DNA of 64,000 nt from a bacterium (GTDB lineage Bacteria > UBA8248 > JACPRG01 > G963555815): contig OZ244653.1 in the NCBI GenBank assembly GCA_965218795.1, positions 4,704,001 to 4,768,000 of the forward strand, read 5' to 3'. Both the position numbers and the translations under genes were made by a program. A model generated the notes under the pieces. That model was not told where the DNA came from. It ran no database searches and saw only the letters and a program-made list of their open reading frames with translations. Below, one piece after another: positions 4,309 to 34,990 of the stretch. The number at the start of each line of letters is the position of its first letter. Position 1 is the first letter of the stretch.

Positions 4309-5373
4309 ATGAAAGTTTATGAGCGGCTGATTCGGCCCGCGTTGTTTACGCTCCCCGCGGAAAGGGCTCATGAATTTGCGAAACGCGCCCTCGGAATCGA
4401 AGCCCCTTGGCGACGGCTGGCGGGACGGTTTGAATCCCGCGATCTTCGTCTGGAGACCGAAGTGGCCGGCCTCCGCCAGTCCAGTCCCATTGGCCTGACC
4501 GCGGGATTGGATAAAGACGCCGAGGCATTGCCGGGCCTCTTCCATCTGGGTTTTGGCAGTCTCACCATCGGAACGATGATGCCTCGGGTCAGGAAAGGGA
4601 ACCCCAGACCCCGCATTGTGCGTCTTCCGGATCGGATGGCCGTCATCGATCATATGGGCCTGCCGTCCAAGGGAATCGCGTACGGAGTGGGCCGGTTGAA
4701 ATCATTCCGTGCCCGTCACCCAATCGGTCAGGGACCCCCGGTCATCGTCAGCGTGGGCGGACTCACCATCGATGAAGTCCTGGCGTCCCATCAGGCCGTC
4801 GAGCCGTTGTCAGACGCTGTCGAGTTTGATCTCACCTGCCCAAACGTCACTGAACGGGGAGATTTCGAGACCCTCGAGGGAATGAAGCGATTTGTGGAGC
4901 GACTTGTCGAGGTGCGGAGCAAGCCGTGTTTTTTCCGATTGCCCCTTCGACTCTCGGACGATCACTGGCGCAAGGGCCTTGCCATCACCGAGATCGCTGT
5001 GGAATATGGGGTCGAGGGGGTCACGCCGGCCGGTGGGATTGCCATTGATGATAGCCGGTTGGCGCTGAAAAAGGGCGCATTGGCGGGAAAGCCTCTACTG
5101 GAGAACTCTCTTCAAATCCTGCGGGATTTAAGAAGCGCGTTTGGTCAGGACATTGTGATTCGCATCGCGGGAGGGGCGACGGATGGCAACGCTGTCTTTC
5201 GGATGCTGGAAGCGGGAGCGGACGCCGTGAATGTCTTGACGGCTTTCATCTACCGAGGTCCCGGCGCCGCGGGGGCCATGAATCGGGAGTTGAGTGAAAT
5301 CATGGACGCGGAGGGGGTGGGATCCGTCGGAGAGATTCGCTCCCGGGCGGCCGCCGTCGCGTCCGGCGCTTAG
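4309..5373 (+). CDS. Dihydroorotate dehydrogenase-like FMN enzyme, paralogue 1 (non-canonical active site)
   Basis: Class 2-like N-terminus (LIRPALFTLPAERAH), AGLDK, GNPRPR, DLTCPN, TAFIYRGP. Confidence 0.8.
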   Translation: MKVYERLIRPALFTLPAERAHEFAKRALGIEAPWRRLAGRFESRDLRLETEVAGLRQSSPIGLTAGLDKDAEALPGLFHLGFGSLTIGTMMPRVRKGNPRPRIVRLPDRMAVIDHMGLPSKGIAYGVGRLKSFRARHPIGQGPPVIVSVGGLTIDEVLASHQAVEPLSDAVEFDLTCPNVTERGDFETLEGMKRFVERLVEVRSKPCFFRLPLRLSDDHWRKGLAITEIAVEYGVEGVTPAGGIAIDDSRLALKKGALAGKPLLENSLQILRDLRSAFGQDIVIRIAGGATDGNAVFRMLEAGADAVNVLTAFIYRGPGAAGAMNRELSEIMDAEGVGSVGEIRSRAAAVASGA

Positions 5374-5422
5374 AGTTCGTATCCGCCCGTCTTATTCGTT
5401 CGAAAATGAGAGACCGCTGCTC

Positions 5423-6490
5423 GTGAGTCTTTACACTCGGGCGATCCGTCCTGTCCTTTTTACCCTGCCCGCTGAAAGCGCCCATCATCTGGCCAAGCGC
5501 GCGCTTTCCATCGAGTTCCCTTGGCGCATATTCGGTCAACAGTATCAGGTCCTCGATCCACGGCTGGAATGCGAGGTTGCGGGACTCCATCAACGCAGTC
5601 CGTTCGGTCTCACGGCAGGATTCGACAAGGATGCATTGGCTCTTCCCGGACTTTCTCATCTCGGGTTCGGGAGCATCACCGTGGGAGCCATTATGCCGAG
5701 ATTCAGGGAGGGGAATCCGAAACCGCGTTTGGCCCGACGTCCCGCGGATGGCGCGTTGGTCAATTGCATGGGGCTTCCCTCCAAGGGTCTCGACTATGCC
5801 GTTCGCAACCTCCGGCGCTACCGCGCGGTTCATTCCGTTGGCGGCCCGCCGATCATTGCCAACGTCGGCGGGTTCTCCAAAGAGGAAATTCTGTCCACCT
5901 TCAGAGCGAGCGAGCCTTACGTGGACGCTGTCGAGCTGGACCTGACCTGCCCAAATGTGAAGGTGGAAGGGGAAATGGCGAAGATGGACGGCATTCGATC
6001 CGCTATGGACCAGGTCATGGCCGAGCGGACCAAGCCGATTTTCACCAAACTTCCTCTACGTTCCACCGATGAGGACTGGCGGAGGGCGATTGAGATGACC
6101 CATGCCGCGGCTGAAGCGGGACTGGACGGCATTACAGCGGCGGGGAACCTCCGCGTCGAGGACCGGCGGCTTTCGAAGCCTCAGGTATCGTTGACCGGTC
6201 GGCCGTGCTTTGAAAACACGTTGGACATCGTCCGGGAGTTGCGGGCGGCCGCTGGCGAGCGGCTGGCGATTCGGATGGCCGGCGGGGTATCTACGGGCGA
6301 GGATGTCTTTCGCCTGCTTCAGGCCGGCGCGGATGCGGCGAACGTGTTCACGTCTTTTGTGTATCAGGGACCATCGATTGCCGCGCGCGTCAACCATCAA
6401 TTACTCGCGAAGATGGATCAGGAAGGTGTTGGGTCTGTCCACGAGTTGAAAGGACGCCGGTCTCAATCCACAGCGGCTGTATCCGGGTGA
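5423..6490 (+). CDS. Dihydroorotate dehydrogenase-like FMN enzyme, paralogue 2
   Basis: Colinear with paralogue 1: AGFDK, GNPKPR, NCMGLPSKG, DLTCPN, TSFVYQGP. GTG start chosen by alignment to paralogue 1. Confidence 0.8.
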   Translation: MSLYTRAIRPVLFTLPAESAHHLAKRALSIEFPWRIFGQQYQVLDPRLECEVAGLHQRSPFGLTAGFDKDALALPGLSHLGFGSITVGAIMPRFREGNPKPRLARRPADGALVNCMGLPSKGLDYAVRNLRRYRAVHSVGGPPIIANVGGFSKEEILSTFRASEPYVDAVELDLTCPNVKVEGEMAKMDGIRSAMDQVMAERTKPIFTKLPLRSTDEDWRRAIEMTHAAAEAGLDGITAAGNLRVEDRRLSKPQVSLTGRPCFENTLDIVRELRAAAGERLAIRMAGGVSTGEDVFRLLQAGADAANVFTSFVYQGPSIAARVNHQLLAKMDQEGVGSVHELKGRRSQSTAAVSG

Positions 6491-6590
6491 CGTCCGATCC
6501 CCGCATTTTGATTCCGAAATCATTGAATCTCGAATTTCCTGATTCTTCTGCCTGGGAAAATCCCCTATCAATCTTCGATGAACGCGTTCG

Positions 6591-7325
6591 ATGAATAGAG
6601 ATTTCCTCCAAATCCTGCTTCGATTCTTTCAAGATGTTTCCCCGTTATCTCTCGCCAGATGCTATCCGAAAGGATTGAAAAGAGAGGATGCGGAATTCCT
6701 GCAAAGGCTGGACTTCAAGGGACGTACCGTCTATGACGTCGGAGCCTACAAGGGCTATTACAGTTTATTTTTCGCCCGGGCGGTGGGGTCTCGGGGGCGA
6801 GTGATATCGTTCGAGCCCCATCCCGAAAACTTTCGAAAATTGACGAAGAGGACCAAGTGGAATCTGCTTGACAATGTCGAACTGCGGCAGGTTGCCATAG
6901 GAAAGGAAAGCGGGAGGGGAAATTTGGCTTTTCGGGCCTCCGGTACGGGGACCTCGAGCCTTCAGGAAGGGTTGAGCGCGGATATTTCCCAGGAAGTCGA
7001 CAGCCAGACGGTTCTTGTCGATATGGACTCCCTGGACCACTTGGTATCCGCCTACAGATTGCCGCAACCGGATTTCATCAAGATTGATGTCGAGGGTCTC
7101 GAGATGGAGGCTCTTTCAGGCATGGAAGATACATTGGAGAAGTTCAGGCCGGAACTGCTCATCGAGATTCACGGCGCGGACCTGAAAAGCAGGCTGAGGA
7201 ATGCGGAAGAAGTCGTCGGATTTTTGATCCGTAAGAAATATTCTCTTCATCACGTCGAATCCAATTCGGAAATCACCATCGACAATTTTGAAATTGCAAA
7301 GGAGGGGCATTTGTATTGCTCTTAG
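6591..7325 (+). CDS. FkbM-family methyltransferase
   Basis: YDVGAYKG, SFEP, FIKIDVEGLE, LLIEIH. Confidence 0.88.
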   Translation: MNRDFLQILLRFFQDVSPLSLARCYPKGLKREDAEFLQRLDFKGRTVYDVGAYKGYYSLFFARAVGSRGRVISFEPHPENFRKLTKRTKWNLLDNVELRQVAIGKESGRGNLAFRASGTGTSSLQEGLSADISQEVDSQTVLVDMDSLDHLVSAYRLPQPDFIKIDVEGLEMEALSGMEDTLEKFRPELLIEIHGADLKSRLRNAEEVVGFLIRKKYSLHHVESNSEITIDNFEIAKEGHLYCS

Positions 7326-7391
7326 GTTTCAGGGTTCGGATTCCTTCGTCGGCCGGGGGGAACGTTTGGCGATTGAGTTGAAGGTGCATGC

Positions 7392-7421
7392 AAAAAGGGA
7401 GACCCATCTCCGGGCCTCCCT
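7392..7421 (-). terminator. Probable intrinsic terminator of the minus-strand deaminase/binding-protein cluster
   Basis: Imperfect GC stem AGGGAGACCC/GGGCCTCCCT next to an A5 run (U-tract on the minus strand), just past the stop at 7445. Confidence 0.45.
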
Positions 7422-7444
7422 CTTCTGGAATCATTTTTCAGGTT

Positions 7445-8327
7445 TCAGACCGAAACGCGGACGGTGATTTTCTCGTAGTCCTTTTCCTTCATCTCATCCC
7501 GAAGGCCCCAGGACTCAAGCCAGGCATGGGTCTCTTCATAGAACCCCTTGTCGTACGGCTCGAAGACCAGGAGTTCGCCGAGAGAAAACTTCGAGTAATC
7601 GTAACCTCCCCTCAAATGGGGGGGAATGTTTTTCTCCCACAGCGGCAAGCAGGACGAAGGATTGGCGCGCAGTTCTGCGTCGGCCCTCTGTAGCACCTGA
7701 AAATAGGCGTTCATAACGTTTACGTCCAGGGCGTCACTGACCCAAAACAGCGTTCGGAATTGCCCCTGGGCCAGACGGCGCATTCCCTTCTGTTCGGCCA
7801 TGCTGACTTCGGGGTCCAGGAGGTTGACCGCGTTGATCTCCCCGGATTCCAATGCCTCGAGCCGCTTTCCCGGTCCGCCCAGGTTGAGGATGATGATTTT
7901 GTCCCGAGGGTGAATCATCTCCATCGCTTTCAGAGCCGTGAAGTGGCTCCCCGCCCGGATGCCGACCCCGATGGGAACGCCCCCGAGATCGAGAAGCGAG
8001 CGATAAGGAGAATCCGGACGGACGAAAACGGAGTAGTTGGCCACCCCGTAGAGATCCGGCACGAACTTTCCCATTCCGGCCCCCGCATTGCTCGTCGATC
8101 CCCAGTGGCAGGCGGAATTGACGACTGAGATCCCTTCCATGAACGGACGGTCCTGCGGGCGGTCGTAATAGGCTTTCCCGTCGTGCGTGCTGACGTCATG
8201 CAGCACGCCTTCCAGGTGCTCCGGTTCCAATCCCTCCTCCTGCGTAGGTACCGTTCCGAAGCGCAACCCATTCATGAAGCCGCATGAAATGAGGGACGAC
8301 TTTGATAACCGTCAATTCTGATGCCAT
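7445..8327 (-). CDS. NMT1/THI5/SsuA-like substrate-binding protein with a 1-nt frameshift at ~8243
   Basis: Removing base 8243 joins MASELTVIKVVPHFMRLHEWVALRNGTY to QEEGLEPE...; later motifs VRPDSPYRSLLDLGGVPIGV, GSHF, RLEALESGEINA. GGGAGA RBS upstream. Confidence 0.7.
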
Positions 8328-8426
8328 GGTGGTCTCTCCCACCTTGCAAGAAACTCTTTCTTCTAATGGGTTCAATTCGACCGCGGACAAAAAATTCCCC
8401 TTGCTGCCGGACCGCGCGGGTCCGGT

Positions 8427-8921
8427 TCAGCCCGGAGGCGTGGAGGGCGCCGCGAGGTCCCAATCCTGCCAGGCCTTGAACACCTCTTCGGCCCTTTCTT
8501 CCAAAATGCCCCGAATAACCTGAATGTCCAAACCGCTCAGCTCTACCACTCGCTCAATGGTGTAATCTCTCAGGTCATATCGCCCGTTGGAGTGCCTCCG
8601 GAGAGCTTCGGGACCGGCGCCAATGACTACTGTACCGATGCCGGAATAAAGGGCGGCTCCGGCGCACATCGGACAGGGATCGCAGTTGGCGTACATGACG
8701 CAGCCCCGCATGTCGCCCTTGCCCAGATGCTGCGCTGCTTCACGGATGGCGTTCATCTCGGCATGGGCGGTCGGATCCTTCATGGCAATCCCTGTGCTCC
8801 TTCCCTTGCCGATGACCTGCCCGTCCTTCACAATGATGCCCCCGTAGGGCAGGAATCCCGCCCGGACGCCGTCCTCCGCCTCCTGAATGGCCATGGCCAT
8901 GAATTTTTCGTGGTCCGCCAA
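8427..8921 (-). CDS. Zinc-dependent nucleoside/nucleobase deaminase (copy 4)
   Basis: PYG, DPTAHAE, NCDPCPMC. Confidence 0.9.
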   Translation of the reverse strand: MADHEKFMAMAIQEAEDGVRAGFLPYGGIIVKDGQVIGKGRSTGIAMKDPTAHAEMNAIREAAQHLGKGDMRGCVMYANCDPCPMCAGAALYSGIGTVVIGAGPEALRRHSNGRYDLRDYTIERVVELSGLDIQVIRGILEERAEEVFKAWQDWDLAAPSTPPG

Positions 8922-8970
8922 GAGCTTTCGTTCTCCAGGTCTTATGCTCTCATCTGATGAGCGTGGAGGG

Positions 8971-9474
8971 TTACTCGCCGGATCTCAGGACATTCGGAGA
9001 CGCGGTCGACCAGTCCCCATATTCGCGAAAGGCGCGTTCCACCTCTTCTTCAAGAACTTCAGTGACGACCTCCATTTGGAATCCGGTCAACTCCAGCAGG
9101 CGCTCGATGCTGTAGTCCTTCAGGTCATAGGACCCCCCCGATTCACTCCTCAGCGTATCAATGCTGGCCCCGATGACGATGCCTTGAGCCCCGGAAGCCA
9201 CGGTCGCCCATGCGCACATCGGGCAAGGATGGCACGAGGTATATAAAGTGCAGTCGCTGAGTATGGGACCCTTGAGATTAGCCGCCGTGTTCCGAACTGC
9301 CATGGTCTCCGCATGCGCGGTCGGGTCTCCTGTCGAATTGACGATGTTCCGTCCTCTGCCCACGATTTCGCCTTCTCGAACGACGACGGAACCAAACGGC
9401 CGCTCTCCCGATTGGATTGCGCCGCGCATTTCCTCGATGGCCATGGCCATGAATTTTTCGTGTTCACTGCTCAT
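8971..9474 (-). CDS. Zinc-dependent nucleoside/nucleobase deaminase (copy 3)
   Basis: MSSEHEKFM start matches the paralogues; PFG, DPTAHAE, SCHPCPMC. Confidence 0.9.
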   Translation of the reverse strand: MSSEHEKFMAMAIEEMRGAIQSGERPFGSVVVREGEIVGRGRNIVNSTGDPTAHAETMAVRNTAANLKGPILSDCTLYTSCHPCPMCAWATVASGAQGIVIGASIDTLRSESGGSYDLKDYSIERLLELTGFQMEVVTEVLEEEVERAFREYGDWSTASPNVLRSGE

Positions 9475-9529
9475 TCTGGCTTTCTCCCGGCTTGGGTCTG
9501 ATATGGAAAGACCTTTCCGACCCGGCTGG

Positions 9530-9610
9530 AGCTTGGACCGGTCATATTCCTCCAAAACCTTTTCTGCTTCATCCTGCAAGACACCCCGGACGACTCCCAA
9601 TTCGCCCTCG
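9530..9610 (-). pseudogene. C-terminal remnant of an additional deaminase copy
   Basis: Encodes LGVVRGVLQDEAEKVLEEYDRSKL, matching the C-termini of the neighbours (LEVIRGVLQDDAEKALAEYDWSTL; LQVIWGVLQDEAEQVLAEYGWSKI). Confidence 0.7.
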
Positions 9611-9632
9611 GCATGTTCGGCGACTGATCCGG

Positions 9633-10100
9633 CTAGAGCGTGGACCAGTCGTATTCCGCGAGGGCCTTTTCGGCATCGTCCTGAAGCACTCCCCGGATCA
9701 CTTCCAGAGGCATATGCATCTGATCGGCGAGGCTTTCAGCCTTGTATGTCCTCGGGGTCTCGGCTCGGATTTCCGCCAATTTCACCGATCGGGCGCCCAC
9801 GACCAATCGATGAATCCCGGAGAACAAGATCGCGCCGGCGCACATGGGACAGGGGTCACAGGACGTGTATAGCGTACACCCGTCCAAACTCGATGAATTC
9901 AGGTTGGCCGCCGCGTCGCGAACCGCGCTGGTCTCCGCATGTGCCGTCGGATCCTCAGAGGAGTTCACCGTGTTGAAGGCCCGCCCAACGATTTCTCCGT
10001 CGCGCACAATCACTGAGCCGAAAGGCTGTTCACCATTCTGGAGTCCCTTACGGGCTTCTTCGATAGCCATAGCCATGAACGTTTCATGTTCGCTGCTCAT
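9633..10100 (-). CDS. Zinc-dependent nucleoside/nucleobase deaminase (copy 2)
   Basis: PFG, DPTAHAE, SCDPCPMC. Confidence 0.9.
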   Translation of the reverse strand: MSSEHETFMAMAIEEARKGLQNGEQPFGSVIVRDGEIVGRAFNTVNSSEDPTAHAETSAVRDAAANLNSSSLDGCTLYTSCDPCPMCAGAILFSGIHRLVVGARSVKLAEIRAETPRTYKAESLADQMHMPLEVIRGVLQDDAEKALAEYDWSTL

Positions 10101-10145
10101 TCCGTGTTCTCCCCTCGCTCCGAACCCTCCGGCAGAGCGAATCGA

Positions 10146-10616
10146 CTAGATTTTCGACCACCCATATTCCGCAAGCACCTGTTCGGCTTCGTCCTGCAGG
10201 ACGCCCCATATGACTTGCAGGTCCATATTCATCATCTCAGCAAGCCGGTCGGGTCGGTAGGTTCGTTCGCCTGCTTGACCTCTCAGCTTCACCAGGGTTT
10301 GACCGCGTCCGGCGATGACCAGCGTACCGATCCCTGCGTTGAGAATGGAGCCGCAACACATCGGGCACGGTTCACAGGACGTGTAGAGGGTACTGCCCGA
10401 CAGGTTTGGGGTCTTCAACCGTATCGAGGTTTCCCGAACCGCCCTGGTTTCCGCGTGGGCCGTGGGATCGTTCGAGGAGTTGACCGTGTTGTACGCGCTG
10501 CCAATCACCTCGCCGTCCCGAACGATGACGCTTCCGAAAGGAGCTTCCCCTTGACTCAAACCCTTACGGGATTCCTCGATGGCCATGGCCATGAACTTTT
10601 CGTGGTCGTTGCTCAT
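10146..10616 (-). CDS. Zinc-dependent nucleoside/nucleobase deaminase (copy 1)
   Basis: PFG, DPTAHAE, SCEPCPMC. ATG overlaps the LLM stop (ATGA). Confidence 0.9.
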   Translation of the reverse strand: MSNDHEKFMAMAIEESRKGLSQGEAPFGSVIVRDGEVIGSAYNTVNSSNDPTAHAETRAVRETSIRLKTPNLSGSTLYTSCEPCPMCCGSILNAGIGTLVIAGRGQTLVKLRGQAGERTYRPDRLAEMMNMDLQVIWGVLQDEAEQVLAEYGWSKI

Positions 10617-11626
10617 CTTGAAGCTCCTTGGGTGCGATTCCATTGTGCCGCCAGAAGACTCAGGGCGTGTTTTCGGCTCTCCGGAGATCCTCGAAGGGCC
10701 AGTATGGGAATTTCGAGTCCTGTCTTGACGTATTCGGAGATGCGATCGGTGGCCATCTCCGGTGTGCCCGTTACAGTAAAGGCATGAACGATCTCCTCCG
10801 GCAAGAGGCGCCGCATGGCCGTCCAGTCTTCCTTGACGAGTGCTTCGTTGACCGCGTCGATGTCAAGATGCACGCCGGTCAATTCAAGATTCGTCCGTAA
10901 GCCGGGATTTCGGAGCAGATACCCGAGCCCCTTCTGGGCTTCCAGGAGAGCGTCTTCGTAACTCTCGGAAATGGTTGTCATGATCAGACTAGCGTATGTG
11001 AAATGACCTTCCGTGTTGCCGCCGTCCTTTCGGCCGCTCTCGGTTTGTTGCATGGCCCACTCGATGTACTGAGGCGATACGGCCGCGGAGAAGACGACCC
11101 CGTCGGAAACTTCTCCAGCGAGCCGGCACATTCTTTCACCGATGGCCGCCAGATAGATGGGAATGGGCGGCCCCGGAATCTCGAAATCGATGTGGGCCCC
11201 TTTGAGGCTCAAAGTCTCGCCGGTGAATTCCACTCGATCCCTTTTTGCCTCCCAAAGCCGCCGTATCGAACGAATCATGTCACGCATATGGGCCAGAGGT
11301 CTTTTCAAGGAGATTCCCATCTCCCCCATTACCTGCTCATTGGCTGTCCCGGCGCAGAGGGCCGTGCGGCCGGGGGCGTACTCGGCCAGCGTGGCGATTC
11401 CCATCGCCCAAAAGAGTGGATGAGCTACGTAGGGACTCAAGGCGGTGGGAACGATATGCGCGTTTCTCGTTGCCGCCAGGAAGGCAATCGACGAAGAAAC
11501 AGCATCCCGGTACCCCAAGTGCTGATCGGCCCAGATCGAATGAAATCCCGCATCGTCAGCCATCCGGCACATGTCGATCATGTCGGCCAGCGAGATGCGT
11601 CCGTCCAGATCGATTCCCAGTTTCAT
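10613..11626 (-). CDS. LLM-class flavin/F420-dependent oxidoreductase (Mer-like)
   Basis: ADDAGFHSIWADQH, PYVAHP, PIPIYLAAIGERMCRLAGEVSDG, VTGTPE. Confidence 0.85.
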   Translation of the reverse strand: MKLGIDLDGRISLADMIDMCRMADDAGFHSIWADQHLGYRDAVSSSIAFLAATRNAHIVPTALSPYVAHPLFWAMGIATLAEYAPGRTALCAGTANEQVMGEMGISLKRPLAHMRDMIRSIRRLWEAKRDRVEFTGETLSLKGAHIDFEIPGPPIPIYLAAIGERMCRLAGEVSDGVVFSAAVSPQYIEWAMQQTESGRKDGGNTEGHFTYASLIMTTISESYEDALLEAQKGLGYLLRNPGLRTNLELTGVHLDIDAVNEALVKEDWTAMRRLLPEEIVHAFTVTGTPEMATDRISEYVKTGLEIPILALRGSPESRKHALSLLAAQWNRTQGASR

Positions 11627-12056
11627 CGAAAGCCCTTGGCCGGGGGTGGGGTGAGATCTGGCGACTAGTGTAGCCGTTCTTGTGCCGACATCCAAAAAGA
11701 ATTTTGTCGAAGCGGCGTTCCTGAGTATGCAGACCGAATCAGATCATCTCTCGACTCGAATTCGGAGCGTTGAAATGTGCAAATCGTCTGCCGGAATCAG
11801 AAGGGTGAATTCTTTCGGGCAGAGCGGAAAGGAGCTTGCGATTGACGCGGAGACGTTGAATCGGGGAGCCAAAAACCGGAAGCCTGGATATCACACCTCT
11901 CCATACGGCATCATTGAGGATGTTTCCCTCTGCTTTCTCAGGGGCTGATCCGGTTGCTCCTCCCTCGAGTGGACGGGAAAACACCGTTCACGGGGTCTGG
12001 CTTCCGGGTTTGGTCAGGGAAGGGACGTGACTCGCCGGGCAGAACCGGATTTTTCT

Positions 12057-12941
12057 TTACGTTTCTATCTTCCACAGCCGCGCCGTGTTCCGCCACATGA
12101 TCCTTTCCATGTCCTCATCCGAGATGGGCTCGAGGCCCAGCCGCTCGGCTTCATCCTTCAAGCCGAGCATCAGCTCGACGGCCATATGGGTGTGAGAATT
12201 CTCGGAGCCGAAGAGGAGTTTGTCATACCCGCAGAGCCGGCCGAACCGCTGAATCGCGCGGAGGTTCTCCTCCGGAGTAAACCAGCCCCAGTACGCCATG
12301 TCGGCGTGGATATTGTCGTACTTCGCGATAAGAGCCATGCACTCGTCCACCCACGGCCATCCCAAATGGGCCACGACGATCTTGAGTTCCGGATAGCGGT
12401 ATGCAACGTCATCGAGAAGATAGGGTTGCTGATACTTCAACGGGGCGTTGAGGCAGGGCGTCCACCCCATGTGGCACTGCATCGGGATGTCCAGCTCGAT
12501 GATCTTCTCGTAGACGGGGAAAAGGCGCTCGTCACGCGGGTCGAAGTGATCATAGGAGGGGTAGAGCTTGACCGCGTCCATCCCCAAATCCTTGATGCAG
12601 CGCTCGATTTCATGGATCGATTCGAAAATGTCCCGAAACGGATCGACGCTGCACGTCATGGCGAACCGCTCCGGGGAGACGGCCTTGACTTCCAGGAGGA
12701 AGTCATTCGGGCAGAAGGGGCCTTTCCGATCCGGATACACCCTGCGGTGGTCGGACGTCATGACGCACATCTTGTCGATTCCGTGCTCGTCCATGGTCTG
12801 AACCATGCGCTCGCCCACAGAGAGATCCGGCTCTCCCCCCCATCGGCGCACGCCCCCCCAGGCCCGGTAGAGCTCCTTCACCCACCATTCCGGATAATGC
12901 TCGTGAAGCTTCCCCACGTGAACGTGACAGTCGATAATCAT
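12057..12941 (-). CDS. Amidohydrolase_2 family metalloprotein
   Basis: IIDCHVH, VKLYP, CHMG, VAHLGWPW, LLFGSE; AGGAGG RBS. Confidence 0.88.
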   Translation of the reverse strand: MIIDCHVHVGKLHEHYPEWWVKELYRAWGGVRRWGGEPDLSVGERMVQTMDEHGIDKMCVMTSDHRRVYPDRKGPFCPNDFLLEVKAVSPERFAMTCSVDPFRDIFESIHEIERCIKDLGMDAVKLYPSYDHFDPRDERLFPVYEKIIELDIPMQCHMGWTPCLNAPLKYQQPYLLDDVAYRYPELKIVVAHLGWPWVDECMALIAKYDNIHADMAYWGWFTPEENLRAIQRFGRLCGYDKLLFGSENSHTHMAVELMLGLKDEAERLGLEPISDEDMERIMWRNTARLWKIET

Positions 12942-13075
12942 GGGTGTCCTCCTGTGAAGGGGAGCTTTCCTCATTCAAGCCCGATCCTTCCGACGAAGGG
13001 TCTGAGCGGATCCCGGGACGCGCATTCCCGCGATATCGTCAATGAGAGGGCGCAGGGAATTGAGGACTCCCCAGC

Positions 13076-15385
13076 CTACCCGTTGGATTCGGCTTCCTTC
13101 GCCCGAATGGCCTGGAGCAGTTCCTGGGGGCGGATGGGTACCTTGTGGCAGCGGACGCCCACGGCGTTGTGAATGGCGTTCGCGATCGCCGCGGCAACCG
13201 GGTTCACAGGCCCTTCGGAACAGCCCTTTGCCCCGAGTGGACCGAGTGGGTCGTCCGACTCGATGAACTCGTGGCGGATGGGCGGCATGGCTTCGGCCTT
13301 GGGGACGGCGTAATCGGCCAAGTTGCCGTTCAGCGGCTGGCCGTTCTCGAACACCATGTCTTCGAAATAAGCCCACCCCAGTCCCTGGGAAACGGCCCCT
13401 TCCGTCTGGCCTTCCGCTCCGAGAGCGGAGATGACTCGTCCCACGTCGTCTACGGTGACGAATTCCAGAATATCCACCTGCCCGGTTTCCGTATCCACTT
13501 CGACCTCGGCGATCTGAGCTACGAATTCGTAGCCGGGGGCCACGTTGCCGTCCAGAAGCGGCGGCCGGACGATTTCGTTCTCGGCCTCGTAATGACCGAC
13601 GGCCATGACCGGTCCTCCGTCACCCGCAAGACGCTCTTTGTGAGCGGCTTCGCCAATGCTCATGCCCCGATCGGGGGAGCCCTTGACGAAAATCCGGCCT
13701 CCTTCAAAGACGAGGTCATCGGGGTCCGCCTCGAGCTCGTTGGACACGACCGCGGCGAGCTTTTTCTTCAGGTCCACCGCCGCCTTGTGAACGGCGTTCC
13801 CGCCAACCATCGTGATCCGGCTCGCAAAGGAACCGAGGGTGTAGGGGGCGACGTCGGTGTCCGGCGCGCACATGTCGATGTCGGTGATATCCACGCCGAG
13901 CTCCTCCGCGGCGAACATGCTGAGGACCGTCGGCGCCCCCTGTCCGTTGTCCCCTTCGCCGATGAGCAGGCCGATCCGGCCGTCGTCATGCGCATGAAGA
14001 ATGGCAGTCGACCCCTCCCAACCGGCGATCAGGCGGTTGCCGCTCACGTGGTTGGCGCAGGCCAGTCCGATTCCCCGCCGCCGGGTTCCGGACTCGCCCT
14101 GACGGGTTTCCTCCCGCTTGCGTTTCCAGTCGGTCATCTCGACCGCCCGCTCGATACATTCGGGCAGCGCGTTCGTTATGGCGTTCCACTTGTGAATCGA
14201 GAGTTCGCCCGGCTCGAGAGCGTTGTGGAGCCGCAGGTCCGGCGGATCCATTCCCAATGTCTCGGCGAGCATATCCATCATGATCTCACCGGGAACCGTC
14301 GTTTGAGGTGTTCCGAATCCGCGAAACGCTCCTTTGGGGGGATTGTTGGTGTACACCAATCGGGCCTTCACCCCGCAGGCCTTCCACCGGTACAGCGACG
14401 GCCAACGGGTCACCATCGTATTGACGATGCCCGGCGAGGGTCCGGCGTATCCGCCGCATTCCGCGACCAGATCGAGGGCGTGCGCCGTGAGTGTCCCGTC
14501 TTTCATGGCACCGATCTTCAGCCGTACCCTGGCGGGGACCCGCATTCGCGTCGCGCCCCGAAAAGATTCGGTTCGAAGGTTTTCCAGCTTGACCGGCCGA
14601 CCGGCCTTCAGGGCGAGCAGACCGCTGATGAAGGCATTCGGATCGTCGATTGATTTTCCGCCGAACGCCCCTCCCACGTAAGGCTGTATCAGCCGAACCC
14701 TAGAAGTATCCAGCCCCAGGCCCATGGCGATTCTGTCCCGGCCAAGGAAGACTTTCTGGCAAGGGACGTACATGACCAGCTTGCTTCCATCGGTCGGGTC
14801 GGCGACTGTGCAATTGGGCTCGGTGAAAGCGTGATATTGGGTCCTGACTTCGAATTCTTCTTCCAGAATGACATCGGAGGACGTAAAGGCCGCCTCCAGA
14901 TCCCCGCCTTTCTGGAAGTCCAATTCGTGGCAGAGATTGTTCGGGGCGTCGTCATGAATCAGAACGGCGCCATCGGACATCGCGTCTTCGGGAGAGAAGT
15001 AGGCGGGAAGGACTTCATATTCCACATGGATGCGATCAACGGCCTCCTCGGCGGCCTCCCGGGACGCGGCGGCCACTGCCGCGACCTCGTGACCGATAAA
15101 GCGCGCCCTGTCGATGGCGAGAGCTGTCTGATCTTTCCGCATCGTGCCGTAGCCTGCTCCCGGAGGAATGTCTTGACCCGTCACGATTGTTTTGACGCCG
15201 GGCATCTTCAGGGCTTGGGAGGTGTCGACCCGCAGGATTCGCGCATGAGGATGTACGCTGCGTAAGACCTTCCCGTGGAGCAAACCGGGGAACTTCATAT
15301 CCGTAGCGAACCTGGCCTGCCCCGAGACCTTCACCGGGGACCCGATCATCGGTGCGCGTGATCCGATTACCTTGAACGAGCTCAT
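13076..15385 (-). CDS. Xanthine dehydrogenase family molybdopterin-binding large subunit
   Basis: KVSGQARFATD, RSVHPHARI, VGGAFGGK, AFRGFG, GQG, GAKGCSE; AGGAG RBS. Confidence 0.92.
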   Translation of the reverse strand: MSSFKVIGSRAPMIGSPVKVSGQARFATDMKFPGLLHGKVLRSVHPHARILRVDTSQALKMPGVKTIVTGQDIPPGAGYGTMRKDQTALAIDRARFIGHEVAAVAAASREAAEEAVDRIHVEYEVLPAYFSPEDAMSDGAVLIHDDAPNNLCHELDFQKGGDLEAAFTSSDVILEEEFEVRTQYHAFTEPNCTVADPTDGSKLVMYVPCQKVFLGRDRIAMGLGLDTSRVRLIQPYVGGAFGGKSIDDPNAFISGLLALKAGRPVKLENLRTESFRGATRMRVPARVRLKIGAMKDGTLTAHALDLVAECGGYAGPSPGIVNTMVTRWPSLYRWKACGVKARLVYTNNPPKGAFRGFGTPQTTVPGEIMMDMLAETLGMDPPDLRLHNALEPGELSIHKWNAITNALPECIERAVEMTDWKRKREETRQGESGTRRRGIGLACANHVSGNRLIAGWEGSTAILHAHDDGRIGLLIGEGDNGQGAPTVLSMFAAEELGVDITDIDMCAPDTDVAPYTLGSFASRITMVGGNAVHKAAVDLKKKLAAVVSNELEADPDDLVFEGGRIFVKGSPDRGMSIGEAAHKERLAGDGGPVMAVGHYEAENEIVRPPLLDGNVAPGYEFVAQIAEVEVDTETGQVDILEFVTVDDVGRVISALGAEGQTEGAVSQGLGWAYFEDMVFENGQPLNGNLADYAVPKAEAMPPIRHEFIESDDPLGPLGAKGCSEGPVNPVAAAIANAIHNAVGVRCHKVPIRPQELLQAIRAKEAESNG

Positions 15386-15539
15386 CCATTCACTCCTGCG
15401 AAGCACAGGTGATGTAACGGTTTCCGTGAAAATACGGGAACCGTCATGCCTTGAGCACCTGTTACGTAACCGTTCGGAAAGCTTCCCCGTATCGCCAATG
15501 GCTTCTTCATGAAAACATATCACCGAATCGAGCGGCCAC

Positions 15540-16476
15540 TCAACTCTTTATCAAAGTAATCAGGGCGATGCCGGCAACGACGGAAACAGTGCCGATGTAC
15601 GTTCTTGCCGTGATCTTCTCCAGCGTCTCTCAAAAAGAGCGCCGCCATGGAGATCGATAACAGAGGTGTCGCACCGAGAATCGCCATCACCCGCGAGACC
15701 TGCCCGAGAGAAATGGCGGAGAAGAGAAAAAACAATGTGACGGCGAGGCTGATCCCTGCAAGGAGAAAGAACCGGAAGGCCCTGGCAGAGCGCACCAGCC
15801 GCCTGCCTTTCGGAAAAATTCCGTACGTCAGGGCGAGAACAACCAATGCCGAGAATGTGGAAATCAAAATGGCGACGTGAGGGAGGGGGATCATCGACAA
15901 TCCGATCTTCCGGATAATGCCCGCCAGACCCCAGAAAAATCCCGCGCCCAGCGGCAGGATCGCATCTCTCCACCGCAGCGGAGCCTGCCCCTTTGGGCGC
16001 ATGATCACCCAGATGCCCCCGACGATGAGAACGGTGCCGATGTACATCGTCCAATGCGGCCGCTCGCCCAAGAGCGCGACACCGAGCAGAACCGAGAAGA
16101 GCGGATTCGAGCCCATCCCCATGGGGGCCGCCCGCCCGACCCCCAAGCGGCTCAAGGCGATGTAGTACAGCGTCATGGAAAGGGCCGGGGAGCTGAGCCC
16201 TCCCAACAGAAACCACAGGACGCCGGTCCGCGGCAAATCCATCCACCGAACGCCGAGGGCCGCGCAAACCCCCGCATAGGCCATCAGGACGGTCAGGTTG
16301 ATAATCACCGCCGCCATGTAGGGTGAGCCGGTCTGCAGCCCTTGCCGGTTCAGGATGCTCATCGTCGACATAGTGAAAACGGCGAGAAGGGCGAGAAGGT
16401 CAACGGGTATGGCTTGCAAATTCGGGCTTTTCCGATTGAGGAGGAAGGCTTTTACCCGGGAAACCTTGAATCGCAA
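15540..16476 (-). CDS. EamA/DMT-family transporter, paralogue 2 (1-nt frameshift at ~15624; start may be TTG 16419)
   Basis: Colinear with 16562-17449. Removing base 15624 gives LFLRDLEKITARTYIGTVSVVAGIALITLIKS*, matching the paralogue LFLGDLEKVTGRTYGGTVTIVIGVATITLLKG*. Confidence 0.85.
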
Positions 16477-16561
16477 CGTGTACAGGGGCTCAGTTCAATC
16501 CCCGCCTTGCGGCAAAGTCAGCAAACACTCCGGGGCGCGTCTGTTTTGAGGGGGAAGGCGG

Positions 16562-17449
16562 CTAACCCTTGAGCAATGTAATGGTGGCAACCCCTATCAC
16601 GATGGTGACCGTCCCGCCGTAGGTTCTGCCGGTCACTTTCTCCAGGTCGCCGAGGAATAGGGCCGCCAAGGTGATGGTGCAGAGAGGGATGATCCCCATG
16701 ATGGCCATCACCCTGGAGACCTGACCAAGGGCGAGGCCGGAGAAAAGGAAGTAAAGGGTGATGGCAAAGGCGAGGCCCGCGTACAAGGAGAATTTTACGG
16801 CCCGCCAGGATCGCACGATTCGTCTCTTTTTCGGAAAAAACCCGTATGTCAGAGCCAGGAATGCCAGCGCCGTTGTCGAGGAGATCACTAGGCCAACCTG
16901 AGGTACCGGTATGTATGACAATCCGATCTTCCGAAAAACGGAAGCCAGTCCCCAGAAAAATCCGGCGGTCAAAGGAATCAGTGATTCCCTCCATTTCAAG
17001 GGCGGTTGGTCTTTCGGTCTTGTAATCACCCAAATCCCGCCGATGATCAGGACCGTACCGACGTATAAAGACCAAGAAGGCCGCTCACCCAGGAGGATGA
17101 CGGCCAGCGCGACGGAGGAGAGCGGATTTGCGCCCATCGCGATAGGAGCGGCTTGTGCCACGCCAAACCTGCTCAGCGCATAGTAGTAGATCGTCATCGA
17201 TAGAGCGGGTGAACTGATACCGGCCACCAGGAACCACATGACTCCGGTCGGCGGAAGTTCCGTCCAAGGGGTTCCCACTACGGTACAAGCGATGAAGTAG
17301 AAGAAGAAAACCGTTGCATTGATAATGACCGCCGCCATGTAGGGCGAACCCGTCCGCAGCCCCTGACGGTTCAGGATGCTCATGCTGGACATTGTGAGTG
17401 CGGCGAGAAGCGCGATGATATCGACGGGGATGGCTTGGATGAAGGGCAA
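16562..17449 (-). CDS. EamA/DMT-family transporter, paralogue 1
   Basis: About 10 TM helices in two EamA repeats (NPL..VILLGERP; PL..LAALFLG). Confidence 0.88.
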   Translation of the reverse strand: MPFIQAIPVDIIALLAALTMSSMSILNRQGLRTGSPYMAAVIINATVFFFYFIACTVVGTPWTELPPTGVMWFLVAGISSPALSMTIYYYALSRFGVAQAAPIAMGANPLSSVALAVILLGERPSWSLYVGTVLIIGGIWVITRPKDQPPLKWRESLIPLTAGFFWGLASVFRKIGLSYIPVPQVGLVISSTTALAFLALTYGFFPKKRRIVRSWRAVKFSLYAGLAFAITLYFLFSGLALGQVSRVMAIMGIIPLCTITLAALFLGDLEKVTGRTYGGTVTIVIGVATITLLKG

Positions 17450-17635
17450 GGGGGAGTTTTCCCTTCAGGCGGGCGTCGGATGCCGGCCGTTCGGCGGAAT
17501 GGCGATTGCGATCGAACCGGCAGTTAAGCCTTCGGAGGAGAGAAAGTCAATTGCGGCGCGATGGGATCTTGTTCCAGCGTGCGGATCCATTTTCCACGGA
17601 TCCGCCATCAAGAGAGTCATCCAGGTGTCGTCACG

Positions 17636-18112
17636 TCAGGGATTCTGGAGCGCGGCCGTCTCCGGAGTCATCATCCAGGCGATTCGCCAACCTTGATGGG
17701 GATCACCTTCCAGGCAAACCGCCGTCACCTCCCTGAATGAAATGATGTCCCACGCCTCACTGCCCATCACCAACAGAGAGACCAGCTTGGACAGGAAAGG
17801 CAGATGGCCGATAATCATTCGGTCCTCGCTCGATTGGGCCACCTCGTCGGCAATGGGAACGACAGGGTCCATAGGCGCCAGCCCCTTTCGTTCCATGACT
17901 CCGGTTGCAGAATGGACGGAGGAACCCAGGAGATTCGCTGTCTGGACCGCTCTAAGCTTGTCGCTGTGCCAGACGGCGCCGACGGAGATCCCCTTTGCCT
18001 TCAGGAACCGGGCCATCACTTCAGCTTGCTCCCGGCCTTTTGTCGAGAGAGGACGCCGGGGGTCTTGTTCTTCCGGCAAGGCCTCGCCATGTCGAACCAG
18101 GTAAATGCGCAT
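17636..18112 (-). CDS. sixA: Phosphohistidine phosphatase SixA
   Basis: MRIYLVRHGEA, RPLS, SDKLRAVQTA, IIGHLP. Confidence 0.88.
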   Translation of the reverse strand: MRIYLVRHGEALPEEQDPRRPLSTKGREQAEVMARFLKAKGISVGAVWHSDKLRAVQTANLLGSSVHSATGVMERKGLAPMDPVVPIADEVAQSSEDRMIIGHLPFLSKLVSLLVMGSEAWDIISFREVTAVCLEGDPHQGWRIAWMMTPETAALQNP

Positions 18113-22963: not shown

Positions 22964-23800
22964 TCAGGTCGCCCTGGGGTATTTGCGTTTCTCTGCAGGC
23001 CGATGCTTGCGTAGCGTTTCGATGAATTCGACTCCGTTATCAATGATTGCCTGCCACAGTTTCTCGCCCTTTTCCACTGTGGCGACGGTCGGGTCGCCAA
23101 TGTGAGATGGAGGGGTATAGAAGCTCTGATCGTCTGCCGTAATCGTGATGGGGATCCTGTCACCGGTGGCGAAGTGGTCATGGGAGAAGAATCGCGTTTC
23201 AAAGTGGAGATTGCCCCGGTGCTCAAAGGCCTTGTCCATTTGCACCAGTTCGGGGCGCCTGAAAAGCATGTGGGACGTCTCGAACTCTCCGCCATGCTGT
23301 CCTGCGCCGGGATTTTCGCAAACCTCTCTGTGGGTTGAAGATGCGATGATCAGAGGGTCGTATAAAGCAAACAAGACCTCCGGATGCTCTTGTTTGACGG
23401 TCTTGCTCGCAATCCCGATCACAGCGACGTTGGCCAGCCGGTGACCGTTGAACGTGATGATATTTTTGAATCCATGTTTGATGAGACTGCGGTAGATATC
23501 CTTGAGGAGATGAACCACCGTTTCCGGCTGAAGTGAGATTCCCGGTTTGTGCATGTGATGCTGAGCGTCTCCAAACCAATTCGGGGGCGTGCACAGGACA
23601 CCCGCCGCCTCCGCAATCCCTTCCGAGTAATCAATGGCCTCGAATCCGTCGACCCCGATGGGAAGATGCGGACCGTGCGGCTCGGTACTTCCGATGGGGA
23701 CGACAACGATGTCTTCCTGCTCCAGGTATTCGGCAATCTCCTCCCACGTCAGATCCTGCATCCAAATGGATTTGAGTTTCTTCTTGCGCGCGGCAGCCAT
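22964..23800 (-). CDS. Creatininase (creatinine amidohydrolase) family protein
   Basis: PIGSTEPHGPHLP.GVD, NGH, HGGEFETS, GDPTVAT.EKGE. Confidence 0.9.
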   Translation of the reverse strand: MAAARKKKLKSIWMQDLTWEEIAEYLEQEDIVVVPIGSTEPHGPHLPIGVDGFEAIDYSEGIAEAAGVLCTPPNWFGDAQHHMHKPGISLQPETVVHLLKDIYRSLIKHGFKNIITFNGHRLANVAVIGIASKTVKQEHPEVLFALYDPLIIASSTHREVCENPGAGQHGGEFETSHMLFRRPELVQMDKAFEHRGNLHFETRFFSHDHFATGDRIPITITADDQSFYTPPSHIGDPTVATVEKGEKLWQAIIDNGVEFIETLRKHRPAEKRKYPRAT

Positions 23801-23879
23801 TCGTTCTTTCCCCCTTTGCGGCAAAAGGCGTCCCAGTCGTTGAGTGGGTAGAAGGCAGGCGGGCCCAAGGACTCGGACT

Positions 23880-25682: not shown

Positions 25683-25797
25683 CGGAGAGTTCTCCACACG
25701 CGCGCTCAATGGAGATGATCGCGGAACGAGACAGCGAGAAACGGTAAAACCGCTCATCTTCTGCAAAAGAAGAGCGGGGTTGGGGGGACTGACCCAA

Positions 25798-26160
25798 TCA
25801 GTCCGTGAATTCGTTCTGAGCGTATTCCGATCTTTCCATTTTTTCGCCGAATTCCACCACCAGGTCTCGGATCAGGCGATAGCGCGGTACGGGCTCGATC
25901 ACCATCCCTTCTTCCAGCGGGATCTGGCAGGAAAGGACGGATTTTCCATTGACCCGCATTTGACAGGTACGGCAGTCTTCAATTCGGCACGACCACCGGA
26001 CGGCGAGCGAATGGTCGATCTCCTCCTGAATGTAACGCAATCCGTCGAGGACCTTGATGCCCTCCCACCATGGAATCGTGAATTCCTGCAATCGGCCCTC
26101 GGTCTCTCCCGCGCCTGGATCCTGACGGTAGACCTTAAACTGTAATTTGCGGTCGCTCAT
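25798..26160 (-). CDS. Stand-alone 2Fe-2S protein (SdhB/FrdB N-terminal domain only)
   Basis: SCRIEDCRTC..VNG..VLSC and IRDLVV motifs; 120 aa; no 4Fe-4S/3Fe-4S motifs. Confidence 0.85.
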   Translation of the reverse strand: MSDRKLQFKVYRQDPGAGETEGRLQEFTIPWWEGIKVLDGLRYIQEEIDHSLAVRWSCRIEDCRTCQMRVNGKSVLSCQIPLEEGMVIEPVPRYRLIRDLVVEFGEKMERSEYAQNEFTD

Positions 26161-27928: not shown

Positions 27929-28368
27929 GGGGGATGACTCCTGCTAATGGAAGTAGCCGTGTAGCGATGCGATCGTGGAGAAAGGCATTCAAAAATTTCC
28001 AGGCGATGAGCGCGTCATGATGAATCGAATCGGAAAATGTCTCCATGCGATTGATAAACAAAAGGCGGCCAGGGGGAAAACCCACTCCCTATTCTCCCAC
28101 AAGGGCCGAACATTGACAATTCGGCGGAAGCTTCAATAGATTGGCCGGACACCCGAGGCGCCGCATGGAGGAGGGACGGACTTTTTGTTATCAAGCCGCT
28201 TTCCCGGGACCCATGGCGGCAGCGACGACAGGGTAACAATCCGTCAATGGGTGAGATCTTGGCCAAAACTCCGGGAAGAGCGCGGACTGTCTGAAGAGGG
28301 GGGATGCCGGCATTCTGTCGGCGAATCTTGACTTGTATCTCGACAGCGCTTCTTAGAGAAGGGCGCGT

Positions 28369-30069: not shown

Positions 30070-30354
30070 GGGCTGTCGAATGAAGGTCCAAAGTCACAGT
30101 TCGTCCTCTTGAGGATTTGTAGAACGACATTCTTGAACGGTCGTTGAATATCGAGGCGTTCGACGAAGAGAACAATCGCCGGGATGGCCTGGTGATGGGT
30201 TGCAGGCCCCGAGAGCAGGCTTGCCGAAATGCCTGATGGGGCGTGAAGAACGGCATCATGCAAGGAGCTTCCGGGCTGAAGGGAACTGGCGGGCTCCCTT
30301 CGAAATCATCCTCGTTTCGATGTTGGGACAACGCGCGGTTCGGAGAGGATTCTG

Positions 30355-33459: not shown

Positions 33460-33545
33460 AAACATGCAGCGAGAAATCCCTGTCATGAGACCGGTCATCA
33501 AGAGAATCGAATTGATTCAAAGTCATTTGGAGGGAGTTCGAGCCC

Positions 33546-34974: not shown

Positions 34975-34990
34975 GGTCGCAATAAGGAAT

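Follow-up and report, generated by a model that had tools for sequence, protein, structure and literature searches.

An LLM-linked array of diverged COG0590 deaminases in a narrow group of uncultured marine bacteria

The array and its partner gene

We analysed a 64,000-nucleotide (nt) stretch of bacterial DNA (hereafter the window), corresponding to C1:4704001-4768000 of a genome (G000) that consists of a single 5.17-Mb contig, with attention to an array of four predicted zinc deaminase genes, D1 to D4, lying directly behind the gene for an oxidoreductase of the LLM type. The four deaminase genes are head-to-tail open reading frames (ORFs) on the minus strand that together span 8427-10616. The start codons used here are those supported by orthologues, and the features are, in order of reading along the minus strand:

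10613-11626, minus strand: Mer-like LLM oxidoreductase, probably F420-dependent (PF00296, E 9e-50)
10146-10616, minus strand: deaminase D1, 156 amino acids (aa), E before PCPMC (PF00383)
9633-10100, minus strand: deaminase D2, 155 aa, D before PCPMC (PF00383)
9529-9603, minus strand: relic of a lost fifth deaminase copy of D2/b type, 25 codons within the 158-nt D2-D3 spacer
8971-9474, minus strand: deaminase D3, 167 aa, H before PCPMC, YDLKDY loop
8427-8921, minus strand: deaminase D4, 164 aa, TTG start, YDLRDY loop

All four proteins match PF00383 (E 1e-24 to 1e-29; 84.8-99.7 bits against a cut-off of 25) and, likewise, the related family PF14437, and each of these CDA-fold proteins is an unremarkable representative of the PF00383/COG0590 nucleoside-deaminase family. 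In a protein alignment D2, D3 and D4 are respectively 61%, 50% and 44% identical to D1, and 41 columns are invariant, including H54-A55-E56 and P83-C84-P85-M86-C87 (D1 numbering throughout). Tyr120, an acidic residue at 123 and Trp153, towards the C-terminus, are also common to all four, while D4 carries S in place of the otherwise common N43 and Y in place of F27. An earlier note made from these letters alone (the original prediction) had described four intact head-to-tail paralogues keeping HAE and PCPMC, with E/D/H/D before PCPMC, NTVN/NTVN/NIVN/STGI before DPTAHAE, and C-terminal loops reading RTYRP/RTYKA/YDLKDY/YDLRDY, and each of these features is present at the locus and in our alignment. 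Its further claim that D1 is translationally coupled to the LLM gene agrees with the DNA, in which the LLM stop codon (TGA) and the D1 ATG share the sequence ATGA at 10613-10616, preceded at 7 nt by AAGGAG. The spacers between D1, D2, D3 and D4 measure 45, 158 and 49 nt in order. A scan of 7000-18000 for promoters and terminators returned chance-level counts, 2 where 3.0 were expected and 12 where 10.3 were.

The array is neither an assembly artefact, which the original prediction had left as a possibility, nor a recent duplication, nor a collapsed or expanded repeat, because the DNA of the copies is just 60-74% identical. Moreover, it is spanned contiguously by two independent contigs, one of 25,245 nt (X5, from another study) that covers 7400-12100 with 13 differences and one of 15,766 nt (X8, from a further study) that covers 7400-11663 with 16 differences, and the ordered array recurs in one genome of the same genus and in two of another. 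We also observed that D4, D3 and D1 share near-identical 35-nt segments at their 5' ends (8881-8915, 9431-9465 and 10573-10607), which encode HEKFMAMAI.E and are 91% identical among these copies, when the genes overall are 60-74% identical. This likeness could be due to short-tract gene conversion or to a nucleotide constraint around the start.

The LLM ORF reaches 11695, and an alignment of five orthologues places the conserved start, MKLGIDLDG, at 11626. Its best NCBIfam match is the Mer family NF002619 (162 bits against a cut-off of 276), that to TIGR03555 scores 137.9 bits against 348.7, and its nearest solved relative is the Mer structure 1z69 (E 2.6e-31). By these scores the protein resembles Mer without being a member of the Mer family. 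Of the 21 NCBIfam families matched, 16 are F420-class LLMs, and F420 dependence is likely on this sequence evidence. Genes for cofactor synthesis are at hand, with cofE, cofD and cofG all scoring above their cut-offs in this genome and cofE doing so in 37 of the 41 genomes searched.

Distribution and age of the cassette

Those 41 genomes, comprising G000 and 40 relatives, were surveyed for LLM orthologues at a threshold of E<=1e-150. Orthologues occur in G000, G001, G003, G004 (twice) and G006 only, and the other 36 genomes have none. The genomes with LLM orthologues are exactly those with array-type deaminases (E<=1e-55), which are found in 5 of 51 genomes of the phylum, all in one family, and in all five at least one LLM gene adjoins a deaminase gene. 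Scanning metagenomes with the LLM alignment brought up three contigs, all of which hold neighbours from the cluster: L108 carries the LLM gene and three deaminase genes; L109 carries a molybdenum hydroxylase (Mo-hydroxylase) gene, the LLM gene and one deaminase gene; and L110 carries the Mo-hydroxylase and LLM genes and then ends. The conserved unit is an LLM gene with three or four deaminase genes, the LLM being the constant partner, a point that the original prediction had overlooked. The number of deaminase genes varies between three and four per locus, and the gene orders are as follows:

D1-D2-D3-D4: G000 and G001, of the same genus
D2-b-D3-D4: G004
D2-D3-D4: G006
D2-b-D3, up to the contig end: metagenome contig L108

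In G004 the cassette (the LLM gene and four deaminase genes) is present twice, at L025 and L026 (G004:C5 and C7), with identical deaminase scores. Both copies lie between DDE and rve transposase genes, beside a gene with a TIR domain, and no other shared neighbours of the cluster accompany them. Consequently, we regard the cassette as self-contained. The LLM copy of C5 contains an in-frame TAA, and in G006 the cassette adjoins UbiD-like and FAD-oxidoreductase genes.

Two further searches looked beyond these genomes' arrays. A scan of genome contigs with the query A1, using patterns that proved too general, yielded among the best 80 of 600 stretches only distant relatives (35-57% identity, many of them partial) and no close array. 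Among the 120 listed of 145 longer proteins, drawn from 8000 scored candidates sharing most words, there was no LLM-deaminase fusion, and the best identity to D1 was 53%.

To place the paralogues we built a quick IQ-TREE phylogeny (LG+G4, with SH-aLRT support only) of 145 proteins, comprising D1-D4, a further 15 array members taken from relatives and from metagenome contigs, the TadA and five solo paralogues of this genome, and 120 listed database matches. All array members group in a single 99-row clade (support 92) that excludes the solo paralogues, and this clade splits into five orthogroups, D1 (14 rows, SH-aLRT 99), D2, its sister group b, D3 and D4 (4 rows, SH-aLRT 95). The frame of the spacer between D2 and D3 reads ELGVVRGVLQDEAEKVLEEYDRSKL, which corresponds to the C-terminal strand and helix of a deaminase. 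Of its 25 residues, 19 match the D2-type protein P0011 and 18 match the b-type protein MG108_b, and an intact b copy fills the same position in G004 and L108. Since this 25-codon relic matches proteins of D2 and b type, a fifth copy was lost here at the site where G004 keeps b.

Residues beside the catalytic motifs differ between the orthogroups defined by the tree. Column statistics were drawn from 14 of 14 rows for D1, 17 of 18 for D2, 25 of 41 for b, 12 of 14 for D3 (identical duplicates left out) and 4 of 4 for D4:

Position 82 (before PCPMC): D1 E, D2 D, b D, D3 H, D4 D
Position 43: D1 N, D2 N, b A, D3 N, D4 S
Position 104: D1 R, D2 R, b R, D3 S, D4 G
Position 137: D1 W, D2 R, b R, D3 T, D4 R

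Position 82 is 84-100% conserved inside each orthogroup, and for positions 43, 104 and 137 the majority residue is shown, conservation falling to 40% in some orthogroups. Loop 115-119 reads PPR[TS] in D2 and b as against YDL.D in D3 and D4. The residue directly before Tyr120 is Asp in D3, D4 and the solo clades, Thr in D1 and D2 here, and mostly Ser in b. Trp153 is present in 75-100% of rows across all five array orthogroups.

Orthologues in G000 and G001 are 71-87% identical, with dN of 0.095-0.18, saturated dS and a correspondingly rough dN/dS of 0.04-0.15 (undefined for D4). Over greater distances, D2 orthologues are 73-77% identical in G001, G004, G006, L108 and L109, and D3 orthologues 70-72% identical in G001, G004, G006 and L108. 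These comparisons indicate that the array members are old, individually maintained paralogues. The original prediction had proposed a substrate-diversified panel. The copies are indeed diversified, and because the differences beside the motifs are fixed in orthogroups that predate the genus splits, specialised enzymes with different specificities are favoured over redundant ones.

Family placement and proposed function

TadA was considered as an identity for D1-D4 and rejected. NF008113 (TadA) is their best NCBIfam family, yet the scores of 84.0, 90.8, 74.4 and 73.0 bits are about half the equivalog cut-off of 150, and a separate true TadA with the motif TLEPCAMC and a score of 168.1 bits is encoded at C1:3490376-3490828, in keeping with the original prediction that the array proteins are not TadA. 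Their charge differs as well: the isoelectric point (pI) of D1-D4 is 4.7-5.2, and that of their last 25-30 residues 4.05-4.57, whereas the last 25 residues of the genome's own TadA have a pI of 11.4, the charge of the tail being an indirect proxy for an RNA-binding helix. Automatic names follow the broad family, with named database relatives given as 'nucleoside deaminase [Nitrospinota bacterium]', JGI relatives as 'tRNA(adenine34) deaminase' or 'TadA', and a Protein Atlas search with D4 returning generic 'nucleoside deaminase / TadA' clusters only.

The closest solved sequences are guanosine deaminase (GSDA) of Arabidopsis (7dbf, E 3.7e-32) and guanine deaminase of Bacillus subtilis (GuaD; 1wkq/1tiy, E 1e-31). 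HMMER alignments to all three structures end at query residue 104-108, and a profile of the C-terminal third searched against the PDB found no guanine or guanosine deaminase at E<=10, only weak matches to the last strand and helix of TadA and RibD (E 0.05-1). The array proteins resemble GSDA and GuaD in HAE, in length (about 155-165 aa) and, for D1, in the CEPCPMC of GSDA, and the fold of these small-molecule aminohydrolases matches the array models (TM 0.78, Z about 23). They differ from them where the pocket is completed, with a family-specific loop R..L..(Y/P)...Y-x-x-E/D-R-L and a C-terminal Trp in place of the loop and C-terminus of GSDA and GuaD. Furthermore, known guanine and guanosine deaminases are solitary or sit in purine operons, whereas the array sits behind an LLM gene. 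The original prediction had set the copies apart from GuaD-type enzymes, citing the lack of GFDD. That putative signature is absent from D1-D4. In sequence, alignment to the bacterial guanine and plant guanosine deaminases stops at about residue 108, and the fold still superposes up to the chain ends.

AF2 models of D1 (pLDDT 96.1) and D4 (pLDDT 93.6) match GSDA, TadA, the Nitrosomonas guanine/ammeline deaminase NE0047 and yeast cytosine deaminase about equally well (Foldseek TM 0.78-0.86, VIA Z 20-24), and because these values are similar for all compared families the fold alone does not select one. TadA shares the topology of the array proteins through the last strand and helix. Superpositions on yeast cytosine deaminase and GSDA reach the C-terminal segment of the models that carries the invariant W153, and the D4 model aligns over residues 1-160 with residues 8-158 of 1uaq (Z 20.8; sequence E about 1e-16). 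NE0047 and the mycobacterial deaminase Msd superpose over their whole length (TM 0.82, Z 18-21), and are distant in sequence, with E-values of 1.6e-12 and about 3e-15, respectively. These are COG0590 enzymes that act on purine and s-triazine bases, Msd deaminating 5-azacytosine, isoguanine and ammeline. NE0047 is extended at its N-terminus for dimerisation and Msd carries a helix-loop insertion (PMC9081823), whereas D1-D4 start three residues before helix 1, which begins at residue 2-4 of the D1 and D4 models, leaving no N-terminal extension.

In PMC9081823, specificity within COG0590 is attributed to C-terminal elements: yeast cytosine deaminase has a C-terminal sealing helix (W152/D155/I156) and a pyrimidine-sized pocket, guanine deaminases have a lid loop, TadA has an RNA-binding C-terminal helix, and in B. 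subtilis guanine deaminase a domain-swapped C-terminal segment provides substrate-binding residues across subunits. The same review states that guanine deaminases need a second acidic proton shuttle and that yeast cytosine deaminase does not, that NE0047 has an N-terminal beta-sandwich extension augmenting its dimer and a second shuttle at E143, and that small pocket changes retune specificity within the family (PMC9081823). The C-terminal segment of D1-D4 with Tyr120, the acidic residue at 123 and Trp153 would form a lid over a small-molecule pocket, and D119, before Y120 in D3 and D4, is a candidate second acidic shuttle. As Asp precedes Tyr120 only in D3 and D4 of the array, and the need for an acidic shuttle differs between these enzymes, the two halves of the array may differ in chemistry, a lead, by analogy, towards purine-like as opposed to pyrimidine- or triazine-like substrates.

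We propose, with a probability of roughly 0.55, that D1-D4 are small-molecule aminohydrolases of diverged specificity that act together with an F420H2-dependent LLM reductase in the breakdown or salvage of amino-N-heterocycles. The gene anatomy, its conservation, the orthogroups, the LLM linkage and the exclusion of TadA were established directly; the small-molecule class of substrates, the divergence of specificity, the use of F420, the catabolic role and the order of steps are what we infer. The deaminases would be small cytoplasmic zinc enzymes working on free small molecules, not on nucleic acids. By analogy with the family, zinc held by His54, Cys84 and Cys87 would activate water and Glu56 would shuttle a proton, so that an exocyclic amino group carried by a ring carbon adjacent to a ring nitrogen would be replaced by an oxo group, with release of ammonia. 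Since the copies diverge beside the catalytic motifs and in a loop without a solved counterpart, they most likely differ in the amino-heterocycle they accept, or remove successive amino groups from a single compound. The coupled Mer-like LLM, probably F420H2-dependent, would reduce the ring at a C=N or C=C bond, and in some lineages an orphan Mo-hydroxylase subunit and two EamA transporters accompany the cassette. Compounds resembling purines, pyrimidines, pterins or triazines would probably be broken down or salvaged in this way, releasing ammonia. The metabolic neighbours of the solo paralogues elsewhere in the genome (a creatininase-family gene, an ADI-like gene with an LLM gene, a PnrA-type ABC system and a Mo-hydroxylase) count in favour of this proposal, as do fusions of other family members to xanthine phosphoribosyltransferase, XdhC and a MoCo-binding domain.

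Several observations weigh against it. Loop 104-130 found no sequence counterpart among solved structures when the profile of the C-terminal third was searched against the PDB. The D1 and D4 models fit tRNA deaminases as well as base deaminases, the diverged residues are termed pocket-adjacent from their sequence position beside the catalytic motifs, and saturated dS makes the dN/dS values rough. All NCBIfam matches of the LLM protein are under cut-off. A second LLM orthologue in G003 is accompanied by an NMT1-type binding protein, a permease and an OCD/mu-crystallin gene, with no deaminase adjacent. G004 and G006 are without a Mo-hydroxylase beside the cassette, and with 73 PF02738 matches in the G000 genome (about one per 70 kb) the link to the hydroxylase may be weak. 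Finally, transcription of the cassette is weakly hinted at: two short contigs of the metatranscriptome library X20 are identical to the window at 10019-10231 (the D1/D2 junction) and 11294-11446 (LLM), and X19, probably an RNA run, holds pieces of D4 and LLM, with DNA carry-over possible in RNA libraries; these RNA-labelled runs each cover 5 of 30 bins, such that uncovered parts prove nothing.

A bolder version of the proposal is doubtful, namely that the cassette encodes an undescribed F420-linked pathway in which specialised deaminases, possibly as mixed dimers, strip a poly-aminated heterocycle stepwise (such as diaminopurine, diaminopteridine or a melamine- or ammeline-like triazine) and the Mer-like reductase opens the way to ring cleavage. 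If true, such a pathway would give sponge-associated or marine bacteria a nitrogen source closed to others.

Among the alternatives, the original prediction had itself offered a hetero-oligomer, and the paralogues could form a single deaminase for one substrate, comparable to ADAT2/ADAT3, with their differences shaping shared or mixed active sites. The order D2-(b)-D3-D4 kept across genera, the 45-49 nt spacers and the translational coupling at the head of the array would suit such an assembly, as would double-length proteins in eukaryotic data scoring about twice the bits of a single domain, albeit at only about 34-45% identity. Members of the family form dimers in which the C-terminal parts help to form or seal the active site, and in B. 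subtilis guanine deaminase they do so across subunits (PMC9081823). We nonetheless consider this explanation unlikely, given that every copy retains the full catalytic set, unlike ADAT3-type partners, that copy number and composition vary among G000/G001, G004 and G006 with the fifth copy deleted here, and that no close relative of the array is fused (best identity to D1 53% among the 120 listed of 145).

An improbable alternative is that the cassette has a biosynthetic or tailoring function, modifying a cofactor or natural product akin to a pterin, flavin, deazaflavin or nucleoside. Mer, the nearest solved relative of the LLM protein, acts on a pterin cofactor, the F420 marker cofE is widespread (37/41 genomes searched), an FkbM methyltransferase gene and two DHODH-like genes adjoin the array both here and in G001, and the G004 cassette is a compact unit that moves between insertion sequences. 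However, the FkbM and DHODH-like genes lie on the opposite strand and do not adjoin the cassette in G004 or G006, there is no linked core biosynthetic gene, and 46 of the phylum's 51 genomes lack the cassette despite the frequency of cofE.

It is very unlikely that the copies are redundant isozymes kept for dosage, for example four guanine deaminases. The N-terminal two thirds are closest to guanosine and guanine deaminases (E 3.7e-32 and 1e-31) and the genome is rich in expanded families, but the paralogues are 44-61% identical to D1 where G000-G001 orthologues are 71-87% identical, the differences beside the motifs are fixed per orthogroup, and the C-terminal third cannot be aligned with solved guanine or guanosine deaminases.

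Lastly, we give hardly any credence to nucleic-acid deaminases that edit tRNA, other RNA or single-stranded DNA, for although TadA structures rank with the closest in fold (D1 reaching a TM of 0.86 and D4 a Z of 23.9), the scores lie below the TadA cut-off with a true TadA elsewhere in the genome, the genes sit in a metabolic operon with transporters and oxidoreductases, and the proteins are acidic, including at the C-terminus, where the helix of TadA binds RNA (PMC9081823). The same acidity and operon context leave no pointer to the base-editing role raised by the original prediction, so the value of these proteins as base-editor scaffolds is speculative, with no indication of nucleic-acid activity.

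The proposed breakdown or salvage of amino-N-heterocycles may be set beside known systems. Purine-catabolic clusters of the B. subtilis puc/guaD type combine a deaminase with xanthine dehydrogenase. As in the neighbourhood of the array, they bring deaminase, Mo-hydroxylase and transporters together; unlike them, the present locus has three to four diverged deaminases in its various forms, a constant Mer-like LLM and only an orphan large Mo-hydroxylase subunit. Melamine and s-triazine breakdown proceeds through TriA/TrzA, guanine deaminase acting on ammeline, and TrzC/AtzC, enzymes mostly of the amidohydrolase superfamily, and to our knowledge no F420 reductase takes part. There, one deaminase per amino group gives a reason for several to occur together, which is offered as an analogy only.

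A full-text literature search found no description of such an array or of a deaminase-LLM cassette in the text it covered, and supplementary gene tables may mention one. What is unusual here is that three to four COG0590 deaminases (five in the ancestor), diverged and in a conserved order, are coupled to a Mer-like LLM in one family of a small phylum, the cassette being confined to a narrow group of uncultured marine bacteria. The original prediction had called the array its strongest candidate for an undescribed system, which overstates the case for ordinary PF00383/COG0590 members in a genome with many expanded enzyme families. The interest of the locus lies elsewhere. COG0590 deaminases are widely mis-annotated as TadA and few specificities are known in the family. 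Five naturally diverged, closely related scaffolds, with changes beside the catalytic motifs fixed per orthogroup, provide a compact natural experiment in the evolution of specificity, and the link between a deaminase and an F420-type LLM recurs without described biochemistry. Should amino-heterocycles of dissolved organic matter or of host origin prove to be the substrates, a route of nitrogen scavenging would be added in a poorly known phylum.

Neighbouring genes and genomic setting

Upstream and downstream of the cassette the window holds the following genes:

16562-17449, minus strand: EamA-family transporter 2 (PF00892, E 2.8e-30), an upstream, separable module
15520-16476, minus strand: EamA-family transporter 1 (PF00892, E 8e-26)
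13076-15523, minus strand: orphan Mo-hydroxylase large (molybdopterin-binding) subunit, xanthine-dehydrogenase family (PF01315, PF02738, PF20256)
12057-12974, minus strand: Amidohydro_2 protein (PF04909, E 2.6e-37), outside the conserved core
within 7445-8390: 276-aa ORF after D4, absent in G001 and so outside the cassette

The EamA pair and the Mo-hydroxylase constitute a second module, which is found in G000 and G001, with the hydroxylase also in L109 and L110. The G001 orthologues of EamA 1 and EamA 2 are 77% and 73% identical, that of EamA 2 occupying the same place, and no EamA 2 orthologue stands beside the cassette in G004 or G006. The Mo-hydroxylase has its best NCBIfam matches in the alpha subunit of 4-hydroxybenzoyl-CoA reductase (576 bits) and XdhA (520 bits), both below cut-off. 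Within the window's range of the genome there is no match to the Fer2_2 small subunit, and no gene for an FeS or FAD subunit is adjacent. The hydroxylase gene adjoins the LLM gene in G001 (86% identity), L109 and L110. Such a neighbour is less telling in view of the 73 PF02738 matches in the genome, and the adjacency nonetheless recurs in L109 and L110. These 73 matches (about 70 genes of 750-960 aa) compare with 28 Fer2_2 matches, and consequently many Mo-hydroxylase large subunits of G000 are orphans, as is the one at 13076-15523. Large coxL-like families have been described in sponge symbionts (PMC8941161). The Amidohydro_2 gene is missing in G001 and is represented in L110 by a remnant of 50 residues.

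The 276-aa ORF has no Pfam, NCBIfam or PDB match and no match to an NMT1-type binding protein. A 64-aa ORF in another frame (8196-8390) overlaps its start, and the gene may be frameshifted or its start miscalled. On the plus strand, 4309-7325 of the window encodes an FkbM methyltransferase and a pair of DHODH-like (PF01180) paralogues sharing about 50% identity, tail-to-tail with the array, and this trio adjoins D4 in G001 too. Further along, 22964-41647 holds many genes for handling amides and heterocycles, including a creatininase-family gene, two fumarate-reductase-type flavoproteins, Amidohydro_3, gamma-glutamyltranspeptidase and a BKACE enzyme, together with an ectoine-synthase-like protein and a 349-aa ankyrin-repeat protein at 35114-36163.

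Beyond the window, G000 has 11 PF00383 matches, namely the four array genes, TadA, RibD and five solo paralogues. Distant members of the family are fused to xanthine phosphoribosyltransferase (XPRT; PF00156, more than 10 clusters; P0131-P0147), to XdhC (P0169) and to a MoCo-binding domain (P0139), and these fusions tie the wider deaminase family to purine metabolism. One solo paralogue of G000 (L111:6477-7832) has a creatininase-family (PF02633) gene 36 nt downstream, and in G009 a deaminase match and a creatininase domain share one 506-aa ORF (L118:6033-7553), a possible fusion. Another solo deaminase gene lies with an ADI/DDAH-like gene and a different LLM gene on one strand (L112:4805-8961, G000:C1:3244804-3248960), opposite an NMT1/THI5-type binding protein and about 15 kb from F420 biosynthesis genes, and a further one adjoins a Mo-hydroxylase gene. 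In genus g7, 10 genomes (G017, G018, G020, G021, G030 and G033-G037) show a conserved synteny in which cofE and a deaminase paralogue (E about 1e-33 to 1e-35 against A1) are 10-13 kb apart. A degenerate solo paralogue of G000 (L115:7268-7855, G000:C1:4490270-4490959) has Gln for the zinc-binding His (DQAE) and PCPMRC, hence C-x-x-x-C, and may be a pseudo-enzyme or a binding protein; it sits in an operon with a PnrA/Bmp-type nucleoside-binding protein, an ABC permease and an amidohydrolase.

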